From Cyanobium sp. CACIAM 14 (GTDB taxonomy: Bacteria; Cyanobacteriota; Cyanobacteriia; PCC-6307; Cyanobiaceae), in NCBI GenBank assembly GCA_000708525.1, contig JMRP01000009.1, forward strand, positions 2,588-66,587: a stretch of 64,000 nt of DNA, written 5' to 3'. The notes under the pieces are model-generated. The model was not told the DNA's origin. It searched no databases and saw nothing but the letters and a program-made list of their open reading frames with translations. The translations under genes and the position numbers were made by a program. Below, one piece after another: positions 13,316-22,468 of the stretch; the stretch's first letter is position 1, and the number at the start of each line of letters is the position of its first letter.

Positions 13316-13597
13316 ATGGCGAGCTTCACCATCACCCTCGAAGGAGGGAAGACGTTCACCTGTCCTGACGACACTTACATCCTCGACGCGGCCGAGGAGC
13401 AGGGCGTCGAGCTGCCCTACTCCTGCCGCGCCGGCGCCTGCAGCACCTGCGCCGGCAGGATCCTCTCGGGCGGCGTCGATCAGTCCGATCAGAGCTTCCT
13501 CGAGGACGAGCAGATCGCGGAGGGCTATGCCCTCCTCTGTGTCAGCTACCCGCTGAGCGACTGCACCATCCAGCCGGAGGTCGAGGACGAGCTCTGA
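13316..13597 (+). CDS. petF: Plant-type [2Fe-2S] ferredoxin
   Basis: [28 protein letters not shown] ... LLCVSYP, showing the canonical four-Cys pattern. Confidence 0.92.
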
Positions 13598-13651
13598 GGC
13601 CCCCGCCGCGACGACCCCCTGCCGATCGCTGCAGCGCCCGGCCGGCCGCGC

Positions 13652-15010
13652 TCAGCCCGCCATCGTGACGAACTCCTCGGCGACCGAGGGGTGCAGCGCC
13701 ATGGTGCGGTCGAAGTCGGCCTTGGTGGCGCCCATGCCGATGGCGATCGCCGCCATCTGAATGATCTCGGCGCTGTGGTCGCCCACCATGTGGCAGCCCA
13801 CCACCCTGTCGCTGGCGGCTTCCACGATGAGTTTCAGCAGCACCCGGGGACCCCGGGCCGGCAGGGCCTGGGCCATCGGCCGGAAGCGGGCCCGGTGCAC
13901 CCGGATCCCCTCGGCGCCGAAGCGTTCGACGGCGGCCTCCTCGGTGAGGCCCACCCCCGCCAGCTCCGGCTGGCTGAACACGGCGCTGGCCACCAGGTCG
14001 TGATCCACCCGCCGGGGCTTGTTGCCGTACACGGTGTCGGCGAAGGCACGGCCCTCGTCCACGGCCACCGGCGTCAGATTGACCCGGTCGGTCACGTCGC
14101 CGACGGCGTAGATGTGGGGCACGTTCGTGGTCTGGTCCGCATCGACTGGGATGCGATGACCCTCCATCGCCACCCCGGCGCACTCCAGCTGCAGGCCATC
14201 CAGGAACGGACGACGCCCCGTGGCCAGCAGCACGCCGCCGCAGGCCAGCTCCTCGCCGCTCTGGGTGGTGACCTTCAGATCCACCGGCACTCCTGTGATG
14301 GCCGCCGGGCTGTGGGCGAAGCGGATCTCGATGCCTTCGGCTTCCATGGCCTCCTGCACCGCGCTGGAGGCCTCCCGGTCGAAGCCCCGCAGCAGGTGAT
14401 CCCCCCGGACCAGCAAGGTCACCGCCACGCCGAGGCCGTGCAGGATGCAGGCGAACTCGCAGGCGATGAAGCCCGCTCCCACCACCACCACCCGCTCGGG
14501 GAAGCGCTCCTGCAGGAACATGTCGTCGCTCACCCAGGCCAGTTCCGCCCCCGGGAACACCGGCCGGTGGGGCCGGCCACCGACGGCGATCAGGATCCGC
14601 TTGCCCATCAGGCGCCGTATCCCCCCCGAGGCGTCGACCACGTCGACATGGTGGGGATCGGCGAAGCGGCCCCAGCCCCGCACCAGCTCCACCCCTGCCT
14701 TCTCCAGCAGTCCGATGTGCAGCGTGTTGAGCCGGTCCACCTCGCGGCGCACGTTCGCCAGCAGCACGGAGGCATCGGGGCGGCATCCGTCAAGCTGCCA
14801 GCCGTAGCTGGACGCATCGGCGAGCAGGTGCCGGTAGGCCGAGCCGTAGACCAGCAGTTTCTTCGGCACGCAGCCGCGGATCACGCAGGTGCCCCCCACC
14901 CGGTCGCCCTCCACGATGGCCACCGAGGCTCCATGGGAGGCAGCCCGTTTCGACGCGGCCAGGCCGCCGGAGCCCGCCCCCAGGACGATCAGGTCGAAGC
15001 AGTCGGTCAT
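13652..15010 (-). CDS. gor: Glutathione-disulfide reductase
   Basis: GAGSGG, redox-active GGTCVIRGCVPKK, a second dinucleotide fold VVVVGAGFIACE, and a C-terminal HP motif (ALHPSVAEE). Confidence 0.88.
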   Translation of the reverse strand: MTDCFDLIVLGAGSGGLAASKRAASHGASVAIVEGDRVGGTCVIRGCVPKKLLVYGSAYRHLLADASSYGWQLDGCRPDASVLLANVRREVDRLNTLHIGLLEKAGVELVRGWGRFADPHHVDVVDASGGIRRLMGKRILIAVGGRPHRPVFPGAELAWVSDDMFLQERFPERVVVVGAGFIACEFACILHGLGVAVTLLVRGDHLLRGFDREASSAVQEAMEAEGIEIRFAHSPAAITGVPVDLKVTTQSGEELACGGVLLATGRRPFLDGLQLECAGVAMEGHRIPVDADQTTNVPHIYAVGDVTDRVNLTPVAVDEGRAFADTVYGNKPRRVDHDLVASAVFSQPELAGVGLTEEAAVERFGAEGIRVHRARFRPMAQALPARGPRVLLKLIVEAASDRVVGCHMVGDHSAEIIQMAAIAIGMGATKADFDRTMALHPSVAEEFVTMAG

Positions 15011-15663
15011 GGCAGCAGGGCGTCGTTGAGCAGCGTGTCCTCCAGCATGGCGTCCCGCAGATCGGTGTCCCGGAGGTCACAGCCGCGCAGATCGGCCCGG
15101 CGGAGGTCGGCGGCCACCATGCTGCAGCCGTAGAGGCAGGCACCGCGAAGATCGCTGCCCTGCAGCTGGGCGCCCTGCATCAGGGCGAAGCTGAGGTCGG
15201 CGCTCCGGAAGTCGGCCCCGCCGAGATCGGTGCGCTGGTCGAGGCCGCTGCGGAAATCGGCTTCCACCAGGCGGCACTCCCGCCAGCGGCTGCCCGCCGC
15301 CAGTACCCCCCGCAGGCAGCAGCGGTGCATCAGGGCCCCGCCGAGGTCGGCCCCCTGCAGCCGGGCCGCCGAGAGGTCGGCGTCATGCCAGAAGGATCGC
15401 CCGGCGGCCAGCCCGGAAAGGTCGGCCCCCCAGAGCAGGGCCTGCTGGAAACAGGCGCCTTCCACGTTCGCCCCGGCCAGGCGGGCCCGGCCGAACCGGG
15501 CCTCCTTGAAGCAGCCTCCGTGCAGGTCGCAGTCCGCCAGGTCCAGGTCGACCCCGTCGAGGTTCCCGAGCCGCAGACCGGGGAAGTGGCGCCGGCCGGC
15601 GGCCAGGGCCTCTCGCAGGGCGTCCAGGCTGGTGGGGAGGTCAGAGGATGGCCGCGAGGGCAT
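15007..15663 (-). CDS. Pentapeptide-repeat protein
   Basis: Continuous A(D/N)LxG-type pentapeptides (ADLSGLA, ADLGGAL, ADFRSAD, SDLRGAC, ADLRRAD ...). ATGA overlap with the gor start. Confidence 0.85.
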   Translation of the reverse strand: MPSRPSSDLPTSLDALREALAAGRRHFPGLRLGNLDGVDLDLADCDLHGGCFKEARFGRARLAGANVEGACFQQALLWGADLSGLAAGRSFWHDADLSAARLQGADLGGALMHRCCLRGVLAAGSRWRECRLVEADFRSGLDQRTDLGGADFRSADLSFALMQGAQLQGSDLRGACLYGCSMVAADLRRADLRGCDLRDTDLRDAMLEDTLLNDALLP

Positions 15664-15946
15664 CGAGCTGCTGGCGTCGGGAAGCGAGCATGAGCTTGCG
15701 GGCCTGACCCAGCAACTGGAAAACGCCCTTGTCGATCACCTCATAGAACACGAGGCTGCCCTCGGGACGGCGGCGCACCACGCCGGCGATCGTGAGCAGC
15801 TTGAGGTGCTTGGACACCAGGGCCTGGCTGAGGCCGGTCTTCTCGACGACCGCCGTGACGTTCAGGGGGCCCTGACGAAGGGTCTCGAGCACGGTGAGGC
15901 GATTGGGCTCGGAGAACACCTTGAAGTAGTCGGCCAGGGCTTCCAT
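15641..15946 (-). CDS. ArsR/SmtB-family transcriptional regulator
   Basis: FKVFSEPNRLTVLETL ... VTAVVEKTGLSQALVSKHLKLL winged HTH. The 3' end overlaps the pentapeptide gene. Confidence 0.85.
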   Translation of the reverse strand: MEALADYFKVFSEPNRLTVLETLRQGPLNVTAVVEKTGLSQALVSKHLKLLTIAGVVRRRPEGSLVFYEVIDKGVFQLLGQARKLMLASRRQQLDALAAIL

Positions 15947-16132
15947 GGTGAAGGGGTGAGTGCGAGGACGCCTTGGCGTGGGGCCAGGGCGAGGATGTGA
16001 GACGACAGCTCGGGCCGCTTGAAAGGGGGCAGATAGGGCAGAGCCTAACGCGATTCGCAGACAGGAACGCAGAGACGCGGAAGCGCGATGACCAGTTCCT
16101 GTAGTATCACGGTGTCGTTATGACGTTGTCCG

Positions 16133-16645
16133 ATGGTGTTGCTTCTGGACCTGCCGCCCCGGGCCGCCGAGCCGGACCGTGCTCCCGTCGCCAGGGCTGG
16201 GGCGTTCTGGTGGCCACGCGGCTGGAATGAGCAGCGGGTCCTGCTCGAGCGCCAGCACGATCGGCTCGAGCGATTGCTCGATCAGCTGATCGATCACCAC
16301 TCCGTGGCCGAGGCCGATCTCTGCGCTGCTGTTCTTGAGGATCATCGGCGCGGCTGCCACCGCCTGGTGCGGGCGCTGGCCCTTCACCTGCGCCTCGAGG
16401 AGCGCTGGCTGGCCGAACGGGGCTGTCTGTGCGGCGGCCATCGCGCCGCCCACGCGCAGGCAGCCGCTCTGGCCGCGGATGGCCTGGTCCGCACCGAGAG
16501 CCTGCACATCGCCCGGCTCGCCTGGCTGATGGACATCCAGGCGTGGTTCCGCCAGCACCGCTCCGGCGCGGATGCGATCGCCTATGCGCGTGCTCGGCAA
16601 GGCGCCCATCAAGCCCCTTTCACCCTCTCCCCCGCCGTGCGATGA
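16133..16645 (+). CDS. Hemerythrin-like (HHE cation-binding) protein
   Basis: Ordered ligand-type motifs ERQHDRL, HLRLEE (HxxxE), HRAAH (HxxxH), HRSGAD (HxxxxD). Its stop overlaps the acsF start (ATGA at 16642-16645). Confidence 0.6.
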   Translation: MVLLLDLPPRAAEPDRAPVARAGAFWWPRGWNEQRVLLERQHDRLERLLDQLIDHHSVAEADLCAAVLEDHRRGCHRLVRALALHLRLEERWLAERGCLCGGHRAAHAQAAALAADGLVRTESLHIARLAWLMDIQAWFRQHRSGADAIAYARARQGAHQAPFTLSPAVR

Positions 16646-17625
16646 CGACCACCACCATGACTTCCGGGACCGCATCCACGTCGGCCGTGCCTGCCGCCCC
16701 CCACCTGCGCGAGGACCTGCTCACCCCCCGCTTCTACACCACCGAGATCGCCAAGGCGGCCCGCACCGATCTGGAGCTTCAGCGGCCTGCCTTCGAGGCG
16801 ATGCTGGCCGAGATGGAGGCCGACTACAACCGCGAGCACTTCGATCGCAAGGCCCCGCTCGATCGCCTCAGGTCCCTGAGCACCGAGGAGAAGGAGGCCT
16901 ACGAGAGCTATCTGGTGCGCTCCTGCGTGTCGGAGTTCTCCGGCTTCCTGCTGTTCAAGGAGCTCTCGCGGCGGCTGTTCCAGGCGCAGCGCCCCGAGAT
17001 GGGGCGTCTGTTCCAGTTGATGGCCCGCGATGAGGCACGCCATGCCGGTTTCCTCAACCGGGCGCTGGTGGCGGAGGGCATCGAGATCGATCTCCCCACC
17101 CTGAGCACCAAGCGGCCGATCACCTGGTTCCCGCTCAGCTGGGTGCTCTACAGCGTGTTCCTGTCGGAGAAGATCGGCTACTGGCGTTACATCCTCATCG
17201 ATCGCCACCTCAAGGCCCATCCCGACAACAACTTCGCGCCGCTGTTCGATTTCTTCGAACCCTGGTGCCAGGACGAGAACCGCCACGGCGACATCTTCAA
17301 CATGCTGATCCGCTGCTGGCCCGCCCTGCGGTCCGGTTTCCGCGGCAAGCTGCTCAGTCGCTTCTTTCTCTGGTCGGTGTTTCTCACCCACAGCCTCACG
17401 GTCTGTGAGCGTGGGGATTTCTACCGGATCCTGGGCATGGATCCCGCCCGCTTTGATGCGGAGGTGATGCGCCAGACCAACCGAACCGCCCGCCGGGTCT
17501 TCCCCTGGGTGTTCGACCTGGAGAACAGCCACTACATCGACCTGCGGGATCGACTCGTGGCCTGTTTCCAGCAGCTGCAGGCGGCCCGCGAGGGGGGGGC
17601 GGACCGCTGCGCCAATGGGGGCTGA
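16642..17625 (+). CDS. acsF: Mg-protoporphyrin IX monomethyl ester oxidative cyclase AcsF
   Basis: FYTTEI, EFSGFLLFKE, ARDEARHAGFLN, WCQDENRHGD: di-iron ExxH motifs and strong overall AcsF character. Confidence 0.9.
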   Translation: MTTTTMTSGTASTSAVPAAPHLREDLLTPRFYTTEIAKAARTDLELQRPAFEAMLAEMEADYNREHFDRKAPLDRLRSLSTEEKEAYESYLVRSCVSEFSGFLLFKELSRRLFQAQRPEMGRLFQLMARDEARHAGFLNRALVAEGIEIDLPTLSTKRPITWFPLSWVLYSVFLSEKIGYWRYILIDRHLKAHPDNNFAPLFDFFEPWCQDENRHGDIFNMLIRCWPALRSGFRGKLLSRFFLWSVFLTHSLTVCERGDFYRILGMDPARFDAEVMRQTNRTARRVFPWVFDLENSHYIDLRDRLVACFQQLQAAREGGADRCANGG

Positions 17626-17740
17626 AGCTTCGCTTCGGCGCTCTGCTGCTGCGCCAGTTCTGCCAGCCGATGCAGCGGGCCGAAGCGGCCTGAGCGCGGC
17701 GTCCCTCCATCACCAGTTCTGCTCCCCTGTCACCCGAGCC

Positions 17741-18451
17741 ATGGCCAACCTGGAACTCACCACCGCATATCGCGAGGCCTACAGCCGCATCAATGGCCTG
17801 GTGATCGTGGGTGAAGGGCTGGCGGATCGCCATTTCCGCCTGCTGGCAGGCCTCCTGCCGGACGAGCGGGAAGACCTGGAGCAGCTGGCCGCGATGGAGG
17901 GACGCCACGCCCGCGACTTCCTGGGCTGCGGCCGGTCCCTGGGGATCCGCCCGGATCTGCCGCTGGCCCACCGGCTGTTCGCACCGCTGCACCGGCTCTT
18001 CGCCGAGGCGATCCGTGCCGGTGACCGGGTCAGTGCCCTGGTGATCCAGTGCCTGATCGTGGAGAGTTTCGCGGTGGCCGCATACCGCTGCTACCAGCCG
18101 GTGGCCGATCCCTACGCGGCGCCGATCCTCCGGGAGGTGCTGGAGGATGAAGCCGAGCACCTCGACTACGGCGAACGCTGGCTGGCCGCCTGGTTCCCTG
18201 ACGTGGCGGCGCCGATCGCCGCCTGCTGTGAGCGTGCCCTGCCGGTGGCGCTGGCCATGCTCCAAGACGTACGCGACGATCTGACGGTGATCGGCATCGA
18301 CCCCCTCGACCTCGTGGGGGAATTCGTGGCCTGTTTCGAGGAGACACTCGAGAAGGTCGGCTTCCAGCCGCGCCAGGCCCGGGGGCTGGTGGCGCGGCTG
18401 GCTGGCAGGGCCTGCCACGAAGCAGCCCCAGCCTCGATTGAATCGTGTTGA
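17741..18451 (+). CDS. Aldehyde-deformylating oxygenase (ADO)-family ferritin-like di-iron protein, divergent paralog
   Basis: AYREAYSRINGLVIVGE ... LAAMEGRH ... LVIQCLIVESFAVAAY ... EDEAEHLDYGERWL are collinear with the ADO motifs YKDAYSRINAIVIEGE, MEMRH, IEAFAISAY and KDEYTHLNYGE. All E/H ligands are retained. Confidence 0.7.
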   Translation: MANLELTTAYREAYSRINGLVIVGEGLADRHFRLLAGLLPDEREDLEQLAAMEGRHARDFLGCGRSLGIRPDLPLAHRLFAPLHRLFAEAIRAGDRVSALVIQCLIVESFAVAAYRCYQPVADPYAAPILREVLEDEAEHLDYGERWLAAWFPDVAAPIAACCERALPVALAMLQDVRDDLTVIGIDPLDLVGEFVACFEETLEKVGFQPRQARGLVARLAGRACHEAAPASIESC

Positions 18452-18684
18452 CGACATTCAATGAGGGATCGCGGCTAGGTGGATGCCCGCGGCGAGTTTC
18501 TCAATTCCGGTCAGCTGGATGCCCTTTCCGGCATCATCGCCGACAGCTTCCAGCTTCTGGATGCCGTGAACAGGATCACCTCCAGCTTCCACCCTCGTCA
18601 CCAATGCGGCGCGGGCGCTGTTCGACCAGCCGCCGGCCCTGATCGCCCCTGGCGTGAACGCCTACTGTCCGGCGATGTTTAGAT
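18445..18684 (+). pseudogene. Relic of a phycocyanin beta-subunit (cpcB) gene: N-terminal ~77 codons only, with an internal stop and frameshift
   Basis: It reads [33 protein letters not shown], then after a +1 shift [27 protein letters not shown]. Compare intact cpcB (25177-25695): [64 protein letters not shown] lies just upstream of VDARG. Homology ends at a HIP1 site (18687). Confidence 0.75.
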
Positions 18685-18866
18685 AGGCGATCGCCTACGT
18701 AGTTGACACCGGGCAGCCTCCTCCGGGCCGGAACGCTGTCGACGGATCGGCAGGCGCCTGCGGACCACTGGCGGGCGCCCCTGCCGCACCTTTCCTGGGC
18801 CAGGAATGGGTCTACGTTGAAGACGGTTGCCGCACGGATCGCCTGCCCTGAGTGACTCCCTGAGCC

Positions 18867-19088
18867 TTGACGTACTCCGCCTCCGAAGGCCTGGCGCTGA
18901 TCGAGTGGTACCGCTCCTTCCGCCGCCTTCAGGACCAGCCGAGTCGTGATGTGACGGTCCAGGAGGCGGCCACGGTCGCGTTGGCCGTGGACGAGGCCGA
19001 TGACCCCGCGCTGATGGAGGATCGGGCGGCCCAGCCGAAGGTGCGCGAGACACTCAGGGAGATGGCCCTCCGTGTGCTCTCCACCTGA
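18867..19088 (+). CDS. Hypothetical small protein (73 aa, TTG start)
   Basis: Acidic, non-R/P-rich composition in an otherwise unassigned gap. No family recognised. Confidence 0.3.
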   Translation: MTYSASEGLALIEWYRSFRRLQDQPSRDVTVQEAATVALAVDEADDPALMEDRAAQPKVRETLREMALRVLST

Positions 19089-19114
19089 CGACGGGCGCCT
19101 CGCCGGATCTGGTG

Positions 19115-19471
19115 TCAGGGATGCACGGGGGCCAGGGGGGCCCTGGGCGGCAGCCCGCGGGCCCGGTCGTGCAGCAGGGTCGGCGACAGGGGAGCCTCGC
19201 TCCTTCTGCCTCCGAAGCGCAACTGCAGCCAGGTGATCACGGCAGGGTCGCCGGCGAGCACCGCCTCCTCCAGGGCGCTCCCCAGCGCCATCTCCTCCAC
19301 CAGGGCCGGCGGCAGGTACCAGATCTCCACGTCCGGCCCCTTGCGGTCGCGGCGTTCCTCGATCAGTTCCCGCAGCTGGCCATCGCCGCTCAGCTGACCG
19401 GATGGCGCCAGCAGCAGGGACAGGGTCCGGACCTGAGCGGTGGCGGACGGGGTGAAGGGGGCGGATGGCAT
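19115..19471 (-). CDS. Ycf54-like (DUF2488-like) protein, divergent
   Basis: ATG at 19471. ELIEERRDRKG..VEIWYLPPALV ... AVLAGDPAVITWLQLRF is collinear with my recollection of Ycf54 (EVLKERRRDYG..EIDFWQVIQPAFL ... AIVSTNKSFIVWVKLRL). The rest of the 331-aa track ORF is non-coding-like. Confidence 0.4.
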   Translation of the reverse strand: MPSAPFTPSATAQVRTLSLLLAPSGQLSGDGQLRELIEERRDRKGPDVEIWYLPPALVEEMALGSALEEAVLAGDPAVITWLQLRFGGRRSEAPLSPTLLHDRARGLPPRAPLAPVHP

Positions 19472-19497
19472 GGCGAGAGGGGGCGGTGGGGCGGGAT

Positions 19498-19554
19498 GCA
19501 ACGAAATCGTTGCGAGCGGACGATTGAACAACAGTAACGTTATACCGTTTCTGT
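19498..19554. promoter_or_regulatory. Two palindromes in the divergent Ycf54-like / heme oxygenase intergenic region (candidate operators)
   Basis: GCAACGA-aa-TCGTTGC (19498-19513, perfect 7-2-7) and ACAGTAACG-ttatac-CGTTTCTGT (19531-19554, 8/9). Both contain AACG...CGTT. Confidence 0.35.
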
Positions 19555-19596
19555 CAGCGCCCCTCCGGGTCCCCTCTCCCCTTCGGCACCGCCCCC

Positions 19597-20313
19597 ATGA
19601 CCACCGCCATCCCTCCAGCCATCTCCGACCACGCCAGGCCCGCCGATGTGCAGGCGCGCAAGGGTTTCGGGCCCCGGGTACGCCGTCTTCACGCCCGCAT
19701 CGGCGCTGCCCACCACAAGGCCGAGGGCATGGCCTTCTCCCGGGCGCTCCTGGCGGGTGAGGCCTCGCCCCGGCAGCTGGCGGCCCTGATCCGTGCCCTG
19801 GCTCCCGCCTACGAATGGATCGAGCAGGCCGGCCCCGAGCTCTCCTCGGCCCTCGGTGCTCCCGACTTCCCCTGGGCGGTGCTCTCCCGCAGCGAGGCCC
19901 TGCGGCAGGACGTCGCCCACCTGGTCGGCCTCGAGGCCACGCCACCGTCCGCGGCGGCCCGGGACTGGCTGGACCGTTTGCGGACCCTGGCTCAGCAGGA
20001 GCCCCATCGCTTTCTGGCCCACGTCTACGTGCGCTACGGCGGGGATCTCTCCGGAGGCCAGCAACTGGCTGAACAGGCCACGGCCATCCTCTCTGCCCAT
20101 AGCCTGGCACCCCTGCGCTTCTGGCAGTTCGACAGGCCGACCGCGGCGCTGAAGCAGGCCCTTCATGACGCCTTCGAGCAACTCGACCTCAGCGACGCCG
20201 AGGACGCGGAGCTGCTGGAGGAAGCGGAGCTGGCCTTCCATGCCACCCAGCGGCTACTGGCGGAGCTGGGGGATCTGGAAGCCCTCGCCGTCCCAACCGA
20301 GCCGGCGGCCTGA
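19597..20313 (+). CDS. Heme oxygenase
   Basis: HKAEGMAFSRALL ... FLAHVYVRYGGDLSGGQ matches the HO signature (AH.YTRYLGDLSGGQ). Confidence 0.85.
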   Translation: MTTAIPPAISDHARPADVQARKGFGPRVRRLHARIGAAHHKAEGMAFSRALLAGEASPRQLAALIRALAPAYEWIEQAGPELSSALGAPDFPWAVLSRSEALRQDVAHLVGLEATPPSAAARDWLDRLRTLAQQEPHRFLAHVYVRYGGDLSGGQQLAEQATAILSAHSLAPLRFWQFDRPTAALKQALHDAFEQLDLSDAEDAELLEEAELAFHATQRLLAELGDLEALAVPTEPAA

Positions 20314-20360
20314 TCGCCCCCCAACGGTTACCGACCTCCCCTCTCCCCGACGCTTCAGCC

Positions 20361-21728
20361 ATGACCCCAGCGGCCTCCGCCCCATCCCTTCCCTCCACCA
20401 TCGATCTGCTGCTCAAGCACGACCGGCCCGTGCCCCGGTACACGAGCTACCCCACTGCCGCGGCGTTTCACGAGGGCGTCACGGCGGACCATCTGGCGGC
20501 CCAGCTGGCCCGACCCACGGCGGAGCCCCTCTCGCTCTACGTGCATGTGCCCTTCTGTCGCAACGCCTGCTGGTTCTGCGGCTGCAACCGCATCACCACC
20601 GGCGCCGGCGCAACGGTGGTGGAGCCTTACCTGGAGGCCCTCTCCGGTGAACTGGCGTTGATCTCCCGCCACTCCGCGCAGCGCCGCCGCCTCAGCCAGC
20701 TGCACTGGGGCGGGGGCACCCCCAACTACCTCAGCACCCCCGAGCAGGAGCGGCTGTGGGGGCTGATCGAGGCGCATTTCGACCTCCAGAGCGACCTGGA
20801 GGCCTCGATCGAGGTGAACCCCGAGTCCCTCTCCCGCGAGGCGGTGGTCGCCCTGCGCCGGATGGGGTTCAGCCGGATCAGCTTCGGCATCCAGGATGCC
20901 GATCCCGAGGTGCAGCGGGCCGTCAACCGCGTGGTGCCGGTGGACCAGCTGCGGAGGGTCATGGGCTGGATGCGGGACGCGGGCTTCGCCAGCGTCAACG
21001 TCGACCTGATCTGCGGTCTGCCGCTCCAGACCCCGGAGCGTTTCGAGGCCACCCTGGCGCTGGTCCAGGACCTGCGCCCCGATCGGGTCTCCCTCTTCTC
21101 CTTCGCCTACCTGCCCGACCAGCTGCCCCTGCAGCGCCGGATCTCCCCGGCGGATCTGCCTAGCCGGCTGCAGCGGCTGCAGATGCTCCGCAGCGCCGCC
21201 GGGCGCCTCGGCGCCAGCGGCTACGACGCCATCGGCATGGACCACTACGCCCTCAGGGAGGACGGGCTGGCCGTGGCCGCCCGCGAGGGGCGCCTGCATC
21301 GCAATTTCCAGGGGTACACCACCGGCGGCGAAGTGGAGCTGCTCGGGGTCGGCCCCACCGCGATCAGCCAGTTCCCGCACCTGTTCAGCCAGAACTGGCG
21401 CGACCTCAAGGCGTACCGGGCCAGCATCGCCGCGGGTCGGTTGCCGGTGGAGCGGGGGCTGACGGTCACCGACCCGGAGGTGCTGGAACGGCGCGAACTG
21501 ATCCGGGAGGTCATGTGTCATTTCCGGGCGGACCTCGACCCTGAGCGGTGGTCCGTGGAGTGGGCCGATCTGGAGGCCCTGGCGGACGATGGCCTGGTGC
21601 GGCTCAGCCGTACGGGCCGCCAGGGGCGGGTGGAGGTGACCGACGCCGGACGCTGGCTGATCCGCACCGTGGCGGCGGTGTTCGATCCGTCCCAGCGTCT
21701 GAGGGCGTCCGGCTCGCGGCTGATCTGA
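20361..21728 (+). CDS. hemN: Oxygen-independent coproporphyrinogen III oxidase (radical SAM)
   Basis: YVHVPFCRNACWFCGC radical-SAM cluster, GGGTPNYL, and a HemN C-terminal domain. Confidence 0.9.
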   Translation: MTPAASAPSLPSTIDLLLKHDRPVPRYTSYPTAAAFHEGVTADHLAAQLARPTAEPLSLYVHVPFCRNACWFCGCNRITTGAGATVVEPYLEALSGELALISRHSAQRRRLSQLHWGGGTPNYLSTPEQERLWGLIEAHFDLQSDLEASIEVNPESLSREAVVALRRMGFSRISFGIQDADPEVQRAVNRVVPVDQLRRVMGWMRDAGFASVNVDLICGLPLQTPERFEATLALVQDLRPDRVSLFSFAYLPDQLPLQRRISPADLPSRLQRLQMLRSAAGRLGASGYDAIGMDHYALREDGLAVAAREGRLHRNFQGYTTGGEVELLGVGPTAISQFPHLFSQNWRDLKAYRASIAAGRLPVERGLTVTDPEVLERRELIREVMCHFRADLDPERWSVEWADLEALADDGLVRLSRTGRQGRVEVTDAGRWLIRTVAAVFDPSQRLRASGSRLI

Positions 21729-21748
21729 GCCCCCCTCAGGCTTCCGGC

Positions 21749-22468
21749 TCAGGTTTCCAGCAGGCAGTTGATCTTCAGCTCGAAGGGCACGGCGCTGGCC
21801 GGCAGGGTCAGCAGCTGGGCGGTGATGGCGGCCAGATCCTCCGGCTGGGTCATCGCCTTGGGGGGCACGGCCGTCACGGCGGCGGCCATCGTGGTGTTCA
21901 CCCACCCCGGACAGAGGGCCGTCACCCGGATACCGGCCTCCCAGCCCTCGTTGCGCATCGTCTGGCACAGGGCCATGAGGGCGAACTTGCTCGCGGGGTA
22001 GGCCGCCAGCGAGCCCTTGACCCGCTGGCCACTCATCGAGACGAGGGTGATCACCCTTCCATCGCCGCTGGCCGCGAGTGCCGGCCAGGCGGCCCTGCTG
22101 AGCCACCAGGGGCCCATCAGATTGACCCTCCAGAGCTCTTCGATCTCCTTCTCCTCCCCGTCTGCGAACAGGAGGCCCACCCGGGAGAAGATCCCGGCGC
22201 TGTGGATCAGCCCGTCGATCGCCCCGAAGTGCCTCAGCGTTGCGTGCACCCAGGCCGCGGCCTGATCCGGGTCACGGGCGTCGTAAGGATGCAGCAGCAC
22301 CCGCCCCGGTTGGTGGCGGGCGGCCTCGCCAAGGGATCCTTTGCTGAGCACCGAGGGATCCCGCACCCCCAGGCTGAGCCGATGCCCCTCCGTCAGGAGC
22401 TTCTCGGCGATGGCACGGCCGATGCCCCTGCTGGCTCCGCTGATCAGGAGGCTGCGTGGGCTGGCCAT
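21749..22468 (-). CDS. Short-chain dehydrogenase/reductase (SDR)
   Basis: ISGASRGIGRAIA (TGxxxGxG-type), NSAG-like HSAG, and YPASKFAL (YxxxK). Confidence 0.85.
   Translation of the reverse strand: MASPRSLLISGASRGIGRAIAEKLLTEGHRLSLGVRDPSVLSKGSLGEAARHQPGRVLLHPYDARDPDQAAAWVHATLRHFGAIDGLIHSAGIFSRVGLLFADGEEKEIEELWRVNLMGPWWLSRAAWPALAASGDGRVITLVSMSGQRVKGSLAAYPASKFALMALCQTMRNEGWEAGIRVTALCPGWVNTTMAAAVTAVPPKAMTQPEDLAAITAQLLTLPASAVPFELKINCLLET

Follow-up and report, generated by a model that had tools for sequence, protein, structure and literature searches.

In Cyanobium sp. CACIAM 14, the acsF2-ho2-hemN2 tetrapyrrole gene cluster contains a gene for a second, divergent aldehyde-deformylating oxygenase (ADO), which we refer to as ADO2 (protein P0001). 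It was found in a stretch of 64,000 nucleotides (contig JMRP01000009.1, positions 2,588 to 66,587 of the forward strand; the whole of this stretch is hereafter called the window). ADO2 is a member of a distinct, picocyanobacteria-specific paralog clade, and is an accessory gene that almost never occurs without the low-oxygen cluster. Conservation of the metal ligands and of the substrate channel indicates that it is most likely a true and catalytically competent ADO-family enzyme. We consider it probable that this enzyme serves as the low-oxygen isoform of ADO and that it is not docked in the known way to acyl-acyl carrier protein reductase (AAR), the usual partner of ADO.

The open reading frame (ORF) at 17741-18451(+) translates into 236 codons with no internal stop. 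Its product matches PF11266 (Ald_deCOase) with 200.6 bits (cut-off 28) over residues 8-213, which bears out the claim, made earlier from the letters of the window and their translations (hereafter the sequence-only reading), that the protein is collinear with cyanobacterial ADO. The same reading had called the protein divergent, rightly so because its score on the NCBIfam equivalog model TIGR04059, 202.9 bits, falls short of the cut-off of 222.65, and its estimate by eye of 35-45% similarity agrees with the 41% identity that BLASTP gives to the canonical ADO of the same genome (38-44% to canonical ADOs). All the motifs that it had picked out were recovered, namely VGE (E25), MEGRH (E53, H56), VES (E108) and EDEAEH (E137, H140). 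These six di-iron ligands align, with a constant offset of +7, with E32, E60, H63, E115, E144 and H147 of the Synechococcus elongatus enzyme (SeADO; ligand list from Jia et al. 2015, PMC4286721), and the two EX(28-29)EX2H motifs of the ADO family are present. The AlphaFold model (pLDDT 94.9, pTM 0.90) is predicted to have the eight-helix ferritin-like fold, with Foldseek TM scores of 0.92-0.97 against the ADO structures 4RC5, 2OC5 and 6JZU, and of 0.97 (root-mean-square deviation 0.6 A) against 5UX2.

ADO2 is a real second paralog, since a canonical ado-aar pair, which the sequence-only reading had proposed to look for, stands on contig C1 of the genome (G000; 3.2 Mb, 71 contigs, 96.6% complete). 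There ADO1, the canonical copy, lies at C1:36151-36804(-) and scores 393 bits on PF11266; it is directly followed by the sole aar of the genome (C1:35052-36062(-), TIGR04058, 586 bits). ADO2 is thus not a sole ado copy whose aar happens to be located elsewhere, and no aar was found near it in the window by tblastn, in line with the earlier remark that an adjacent acyl-ACP reductase is missing. The neighbours named in that reading, AcsF upstream and heme oxygenase (HO) and HemN downstream, were likewise recovered (TIGR02029, PF01126 and TIGR00538, respectively). AcsF and HO are themselves duplicated in this genome, with scores of 500 bits (contig C4) versus 357-358 bits (this cluster) for AcsF, and 282 bits (C37) versus 99 bits (this cluster) for HO; for AcsF, HO and ADO alike, this cluster holds the lower-scoring copy.

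More than 100 proteins with 59-86% identity to ADO2, annotated as fatty aldehyde decarbonylase, came up in a word-indexed search; named sources include Cyanobium gracile, Cyanobium spp., Synechococcus CS-1324 and GreenBA-s. In a library of representatives at 50% identity the clade has its own entry (P0121, 60% identity), distinct from the canonical representative (P0124, 40%). When presence was called from one match at E<=1e-60, ADO2 was detected in 66 of the 301 sampled genomes of the window's family (49-100% identity), in 54 of 209 high-quality genomes and in 18 of 64 genera. Since all 66 genomes carry at least two PF11266 matches, ADO2 always comes in addition to the canonical ADO and never replaces it. 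Outside the family, a phylum-wide sample of 401 genomes yielded no match to ADO2 above 44% identity.

The phylogeny that the sequence-only reading had called for was built by maximum likelihood (quick IQ-TREE, SH-aLRT support) from 41 paralogs, 27 canonical picocyanobacterial ADOs and 35 ADOs of other cyanobacteria. All 41 paralogs, ADO2 of the window included, lie on one side of a single branch with an SH-aLRT of 100, and the canonical picocyanobacterial ADOs are likewise supported at 100; ADO2 is therefore not nested inside the canonical picocyanobacterial clade. The mean pairwise identity is 60% within the ADO2 clade versus 76% among the canonical picocyanobacterial ADOs. In a tree with distant outgroups, the branch between canonical ADOs and paralogs measures 1.28 substitutions per site (SH-aLRT 99), and the outgroups attach unstably. 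Rooting with P0129, P0132, P0141, P0168, P0169 and P0178 was dropped, as the very long branches of these distant ADO-like representatives joined inside the paralogs, so that this tree gives neither a root nor an age or direction of the duplication; they were left out of the second tree.

To describe the genomic surroundings, about 14 kb around ADO2 were taken from 40 genomes spanning the clade, and the window proteins were mapped onto them by tblastn. The gene order is Penta< ArsR< (hemerythrin-like>) AcsF2> (GT8-like>) ADO2> Ycf54-like< HO2> HemN2>, where the arrowheads give the orientation and the parentheses mark genes present in part of the loci. Of the 38 loci on contigs long enough to show it, 37 have an intact acsF2 adjoining ADO2 and one (L021) has a fragmentary acsF2; ho2-hemN2 lie at most 7 kb past ADO2 in 33/40 loci, and none of the 40 contains AAR by tblastn. 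acsF2 and ADO2 are linked in 18 genera, with protein identities of 46-85%, and have stayed together through inversions and insertions. For instance, where insertions have split the cluster (G199, G146, G262, G212, G093), ADO2 remains with acsF2, away from ho2. An ho2-type gene occurs in 97 of the 301 family genomes, a set that takes in 64 of the 66 genomes with ADO2; the sampled genomes are mutually related, and these co-occurrence counts are descriptive, with no statistical test attached. Ten ho2 loci lacking ADO2 contain no remnant of it at E<=1e-3, and consist either of the compact arrangement ArsR< AcsF2> HO2> HemN2> or of unrelated insertions.

The active site was compared between 41 ADO2 paralogs and 60 canonical ADOs, using SeADO numbering. 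The six di-iron ligands are kept across the 41 clade members with a single exception, E144G, and 28 columns, ligands included, are invariant across both clades. For the channel we considered the 17 residues listed by Bao 2016, complemented by those of Jia 2015, and the Y21-Y125 lid. Y17, I24, V28, G31, C70, L74, F117, A118, A121, Y122, Y125 and D130 are the same in every sequence of both groups, and Y21, F67, F87, V128 and A129 are nearly so. Nine of Bao's 17 residues are identical in all 101 sequences; Y21, F67, F87 and L198 have the canonical identity in at least 33 of the 41 paralogs, and the hydrophobic aldehyde channel with its lid is retained. Another four of the 17 show hydrophobic replacements (I27 to V, M or L; F86 to L in 41/41; V184 to L in 30/41; M193 to I in 22/41), and I114, outside Bao's list, is V in 28/41 paralogs.

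The two groups are each at least 90% fixed for a different residue at just four columns, namely N38H, Y39F, F86L and L191I. Position 38 is H in all 41 paralogs versus N in all 60 canonical ADOs, and position 39 is F in all 41 versus Y in 57/60. Both residues lie in the second sphere of the di-iron centre, where Y39 is in contact with Q110 and with the ligands E60 and H147, and Q110 in turn contacts N38, Y39 and the ligand E115; Y39 had already been noted to be 'Phe in 8 cADOs' (Wang et al. 2017, PMC5356278). With N38H and Y39F fixed throughout, the clade has a second sphere that is remodelled but, evidently, functional. Pairwise dN/dS values against five relatives, calculated for the same genome pairs, are 0.20-0.33 for ADO2, 0.11-0.19 for ADO1 and 0.11-0.20 for AcsF2. 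Selection on ADO2 is thus purifying, and about twice as relaxed as on ADO1.

The surface through which ADO docks to its partner has diverged as well. In the known complex, acidic residues of ADO helix 7 bind the basic AAR residues R73, R79 and K80, and in SeADO the single substitutions E196A or E200A make AAR binding undetectable, while E200A/D201A also abolishes it (Gao et al. 2020, PMC7089970). The equivalents of positions 196, 200 and 201 in ADO2 are L189, G193 and E194. An acidic residue is present at position 196 in only 3 of the 41 paralogs versus 59/60 canonical ADOs. At position 200 all 41 paralogs have A, G or V, where 54/60 canonical ADOs have E, and at position 201 E occurs in 26 paralogs and S in 11; the helix-7 segment holds on average 4.2 acidic residues in ADO2 versus 6.0 in canonical ADOs. 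The replacement of E196 and E200, and the fact that none of the ADO2 loci contains aar, suggest that the known AAR-ADO complex is not formed by ADO2, which would obtain its aldehyde by another route.

As a protein, ADO2 is not new, because its clade has already been crystallised and assayed. The top PDB match of P0001 is 5UX2 (247.5 bits, versus about 170 for each of the canonical ADO structures), an entry entitled 'Protein 19 with aldehyde deformylating oxidase activity from Synechococcus'. Its sequence matches the ORF L024:6990-7673, which occupies the same position in the cluster; this ORF has a GTG start and from its second codon, ATG, is identical to WP_007102535/EAQ69351 of RS9909/RS9917-type Synechococcus, whose 90% cluster also includes the protein of WH 8101. 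Two ADO homologs were reported in Cyanobium gracile PCC 6307, Synechococcus CB0101, RS9917 and others, with no comment on function (Coates et al. 2014, PMC3903477), and the RS9917 ADO (ZP_01080370) was later selected 'specifically as an outlier', 40-41% identical to other ADOs (Patrikainen et al. 2017, PMC5699528). We infer that this enzyme is a member of the ADO2 clade, because the figure of 40-41% agrees with the paralog but not with the canonical marine ADO, and the strain has two copies. Expressed in E. coli, it accepted straight-chain C4-C8 aldehydes and formed heptane, pentane and propane (C3-C7 alkanes), with 8-30% of the yield of the best enzyme and a protein level of 11-20% of that of other ADOs (PMC5699528); according to the same paper, its inferiority had earlier been seen by Schirmer et al. 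2010.

By contrast, neither the association of ADO2 with the low-oxygen cluster nor its missing AAR-docking residues seem to have been described in the literature searched. Publications on acsF2-ho2-hemN2 (in RS9917, WH 8101, CB0101, Prochlorococcus from anoxic marine zones and a Black Sea Cyanobium) mention no ADO-like gene (PMC7980375, PMC13588713), and in the Black Sea Cyanobium three unnamed genes stand between acsF2 (CDS3229) and ho2 (CDS3233) (PMC13588713). Among papers containing both sets of terms, none was found to connect ADO with this cluster, and a literature text search on 5UX2 and RS9917_09941 gave no relevant paper.

The idea of a low-oxygen isoform, already raised by the sequence-only reading, is reasonably supported by genomic context, because ADO2 sits in the acsF2-ho2-hemN2 cluster, co-occurs with ho2, follows the paired-copy pattern of its neighbours and has a precedent in DesF. 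Low O2 induces AcsF2, HO2 and HemN in both Synechocystis 6803 and Synechococcus 7002 (PMC4500134, PMC7980375). In PCC 7002 the regulator ChlR targets only acsFII, ho2, hemN and desF, and a desF mutant is conditionally lethal under micro-oxia (PMC4500134). ADO2 shares two features of this isoform set, its location in the cluster and a housekeeping paralog of roughly 40-50% identity elsewhere in the genome (ADO1, 41%). The other enzymes of the cluster are alternatives for steps that need O2, as with AcsF2 and HO2, or, as with HemN, replace such a step independently of O2. Within it ADO2, as a di-iron, ferritin-like enzyme, would convert a fatty aldehyde, O2 and four electrons into an alkane and formate, and may sustain alkane synthesis when O2 limits the housekeeping ADO1; DesF plays the corresponding part for DesC in PCC 7002, as do AcsF2 and HO2 for AcsF1 and HO1. 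Judging from the common strand and the short intergenic spacer, ADO2 is probably co-transcribed with the hemerythrin-like gene and acsF2. It would be induced at low O2 and may have a higher affinity for O2, and the second-sphere changes N38H and Y39F may alter its reactivity with O2. With E196 and E200 replaced, electrostatic docking to AAR would be lost, and free aldehyde would probably be taken up instead of being channelled from AAR to ADO. More speculatively, the hemerythrin-like protein could deliver or buffer O2 for AcsF2 and ADO2.

Several points weigh against this interpretation. The analogy with ChlR is indirect, because the regulator gene of the ADO2 cluster is of the ArsR type and not of the MarR type. 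In the Black Sea Cyanobium, dark anoxia raised acsF2, ho2 and hemN2 by just 0.1-0.5 log2-fold (PMC13588713). ADO2 is missing from 33 of the 97 ho2 genomes and is therefore dispensable for the core role of the cluster. Y39F lowers the kcat of SeADO from 0.45 to 0.37 per min, i.e. by about 18% (PMC5356278). The RS9917 enzyme performs poorly in E. coli, mainly through its low protein level and, according to the authors, also intrinsically (PMC5699528), and the placement of ZP_01080370 in the ADO2 clade is derived from the identity figure and the presence of two copies in the strain. Lastly, the loss of E200 alone is not decisive for AAR binding, because A200/E201 also occurs in six canonical ADOs (L047, L048 and L056-L059; G212, G235, G099, G158, G273 and G033), all of them from Cyanobium-type genomes that also hold ADO2; more weight attaches to the loss of E196.

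Some of these points would equally suit an ordinary, somewhat relaxed back-up ADO without any oxygen specialisation, whose adjacency to acsF2 is an accident kept by linkage. Such a copy would form alkanes as the ortholog does, would tolerate a dN/dS about double that of ADO1 and a substitution, Y39F, that has little effect in SeADO, and could be lost as readily as the clade has been, not only from the 33 ho2 genomes mentioned above but also from 5/17 same-genus genomes (G000 included). We nevertheless regard this explanation as unlikely: the bond with acsF2 has held over 18 genera despite inversions and insertions, ADO2 is almost confined to genomes with ho2, and the four sites fixed differently in all or nearly all members point to directional and not merely relaxed change.

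A second alternative concerns the substrate. The sequence-only reading had also considered a di-iron oxygenase recruited to a different substrate, and ADO2 could deformylate an aldehyde that does not come from AAR, such as a phytenal-type isoprenoid from chlorophyll turnover or a glycolipid substrate linked to a GT8-like glycosyltransferase. Its gene is surrounded by genes for chlorophyll and heme synthesis and is never accompanied by aar, and the protein has lost the AAR-docking residues and carries the hydrophobic channel replacements given above (I27V/M/L, F86L, I114V, V184L, M193I); moreover, a GT8-like gene is coupled to ADO2 in 15/40 loci, and the small amount of heptane made by the ortholog was considered a specific trait of this enzyme. 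However, the channel is still a long hydrophobic tunnel in which most residues are as in canonical ADOs, the ortholog takes straight-chain aldehydes and makes alkanes in E. coli, no ADO is known to be linked with isoprenoid aldehydes, and the GT8-like gene is missing from the window and from 25/40 loci. The proposal is thus weakened, and we hold it to be improbable. In its specific form, in which ADO2 is not fed by AAR and deformylates a cluster-related aldehyde (isoprenoid or GT8-coupled lipid) at low O2, it is a long shot, which if true would amount to a new physiological reaction for the ADO fold, beyond that of an isoform.

It is very improbable that ADO2 is mainly a non-catalytic accessory of AcsF2, for example in the handling of iron or oxygen, with alkane formation as a vestige. 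Its tightest linkage is indeed to acsF2 and not to ho2, three di-iron-type proteins are encoded in a row, and the ortholog is weak in a heterologous host, but a scaffold would not need the full conservation of ligands and lipid channel, and many acsF2 clusters work without ADO2. A decaying duplicate, i.e. a pseudogene in the making, might be suspected from the score under the NCBIfam cut-off and from the faster evolution relative to ADO1, but is effectively refuted by the intact frame, the dN/dS of 0.20-0.33, the 28 invariant columns with the ligands, the retention of the clade in 66 genomes and 18 genera, and an ortholog that folds, crystallises and is active.

ADO has been heavily studied for biofuel production, where low turnover and the demand for O2 and electrons are the bottlenecks, and that literature has so far treated the RS9917-type enzyme as an odd 'outlier' ortholog of poor performance. 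If ADO2 is the low-oxygen isoform that we favour, low-oxygen, coastal and freshwater picocyanobacteria may hold an alkane-forming enzyme dedicated to low O2, one that would not dock to AAR in the known way. The set of micro-oxic back-ups would then extend from pigments and desaturation to hydrocarbon synthesis, alkanes would matter to membranes under micro-oxia, and N38H and Y39F would become natural leads for tuning the reaction of ADO with O2. Should its kinetics be ordinary, the finding would shrink to a catalogued paralog.

The features of the cluster in the window are listed in Table 1.

Table 1. ADO2 and the surrounding features, in window coordinates.
Feature	Position	Strand	Description
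Pentapeptide-repeat protein	15007..15663	-	PF00805, E 3.1e-30; downstream of arsR
ArsR-family regulator	15641..15946	-	PF01022 HTH_5, E 4.7e-9; divergent from cluster
Hemerythrin-like gene	16133..16645	+	Weak PF01814 match, E 0.0066; heads the + strand unit
acsF2	16639..17625	+	Mg-protoporphyrin IX monomethyl ester oxidative cyclase, lower-scoring copy; TIGR02029 ~358 bits, NF010172 432 bits
ADO2 (P0001)	17741..18451	+	Divergent aldehyde-deformylating-oxygenase paralog, 236 aa
cpcB-like short ORF	18479..18682	+	TIGR01339 E 6.5e-7 over 34 residues; PF00502 E 0.0099
73-aa ORF	18867-19088		In spacer after ADO2; no Pfam or NCBIfam match
ORF labelled Ycf54-like	19115..19471	-	Between ADO2 and ho2; no Pfam match
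ho2	19597..20313	+	Heme oxygenase, lower-scoring copy; PF01126 99 bits
hemN2	20361..21728	+	Oxygen-independent coproporphyrinogen III oxidase; TIGR00538 457 bits, cut-off 325

acsF2 lies directly upstream of ADO2 on the same strand, with a spacer of 115 nt. An inverted repeat in this spacer was rejected as a feature, as its folding is no better than that of shuffled sequence (z = +1.06). A promoter and terminator consensus scan of 15900-21900 gave no site on either strand, and terminator-like sites were fewer than in shuffles, a result that carries no weight either way. The 3' end of the hemerythrin-like gene overlaps the start of acsF2, and the + strand unit 16133-18451 encodes three consecutive di-iron-type proteins (hemerythrin-like, AcsF2 and ADO2). 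A hemerythrin-like gene precedes acsF2 in 21/40 ADO2 loci versus 0/7 acsF2 loci without ADO2, the latter being a small and related sample. On the other side, ArsR is found at the same position in ADO2 loci with 76-98% identity, and arsR is drawn in the published figure of the cluster (PMC7980375). The pentapeptide-repeat gene adjoins it in nearly all loci, and this pair goes with the cluster throughout the family; the block 13316-15946 (ferredoxin> glutathione-reductase< pentapeptide< ArsR<) is 83-98% identical in same-genus genomes.

Downstream of ADO2, the sequence-only reading had reported a cpcB relic. The short match is there but its support is weak, since it resembles the N-terminus of phycocyanin beta over a few tens of residues; it is probably a cpcB fragment in a variable spacer, and no counterpart occurs at the corresponding position in the other ADO2 loci. 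The region that follows ADO2 (window 18452-19114; also L005-L011, L017 and L029) is a hot spot of insertion, and the distance from ADO2 to the Ycf54-like ORF or ho2 varies from less than 100 bp to more than 6 kb. Homologs of the Ycf54-like ORF are found by tblastn at the matching position and in the matching orientation in most ADO2 loci (35-76% identity), and in only one of the ten ADO2-less loci (L106); this ORF may therefore travel with ADO2 as part of a variable insert between acsF2 and ho2. hemN2 comes after ho2 in every locus that reaches that far, and in some genomes the ho2-hemN2 pair is 11-36 kb off, on another contig or, in G093, about 640 kb away.

In 15/40 loci, the window excepted, a gene for a GT8-like glycosyltransferase (PF01501, E 2.5e-9) lies directly upstream of ADO2, e.g. 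at L024:6292-6993(+) and L020:7782-8564(-). It is better conserved than ADO2 (72-100% identity), its stop overlaps the start of ADO2 in L024, and it remains with ADO2 where acsF2 is inverted (L032, L038); a split GT8-like remnant is present in the ADO2-less locus L109. Locus L038 (G002:C233) has two AcsF2-like genes, 77% and 65% identical to AcsF2 of the window, which flank an additional Ycf54-like ORF and a ferredoxin-like gene; ADO2 is on one strand here, and the two acsF2-like genes and ho2-hemN2 are on the other.

When compared with the canonical ADOs (S. elongatus PCC 7942 orf1593, 4RC5/6JZU; P. marinus MIT9313 PMT1231, 2OC5), ADO2 has in common the PF11266 domain, the ferritin-like fold, the six ligands, the hydrophobic channel with the Y21-Y125 lid and, as shown for its ortholog, alkane formation. 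It differs in standing in a low-oxygen tetrapyrrole cluster and not beside aar, in evolving faster, in the fixation of N38H, Y39F, F86L and L191I and in the replacement of E196 and E200. An extra ADO copy beside the canonical one is also known from Cyanothece PCC 7425 and Leptolyngbya PCC 7375 (Coates 2014), and was found in G577 (L079, G577:C19) and G539 (L082, G539:C5). The last two copies are fast-evolving and 40-42% identical to P0001, and they group with P0130 in the non-picocyanobacterial radiation, away from ADO2. They therefore represent separate duplications and were rejected as members of the ADO2 clade.

The closest characterised relative is the protein of 5UX2 (RS9909/RS9917-type), which belongs to the ADO2 clade, has the same fold with 56% identity in the structural alignment, shares H38, F39, L86, I191 and non-acidic residues at 196 and 200, and is likewise encoded between acsF2 and ho2 (L024, L035). 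At position 201 it has S, versus E in P0001. The RS9917-type cluster contains a GT8-like gene overlapping the start of ADO2 and no hemerythrin gene, whereas in the window a hemerythrin gene is present, GT8 is missing and ADO2 is followed by a cpcB-like fragment.

The delta-9 desaturase (DesC/DesF) is, like ADO, a di-iron enzyme. DesF is a membrane desaturase and ADO2 would be a soluble deformylating oxygenase; the desF gene comes after hemN and that of ADO2 after acsF2, and the regulator is the MarR-type ChlR in PCC 7002 versus an ArsR-type gene here. Low-oxygen induction and a micro-oxic phenotype have been demonstrated for DesF and would be expected of a low-oxygen ADO2. Like ADO2, DesF of PCC 7002 is an O2-dependent enzyme of lipid metabolism, encoded as a second copy of about 40-50% similarity within the acsF2-ho2-hemN cluster, with the housekeeping DesC encoded elsewhere (PMC4500134).

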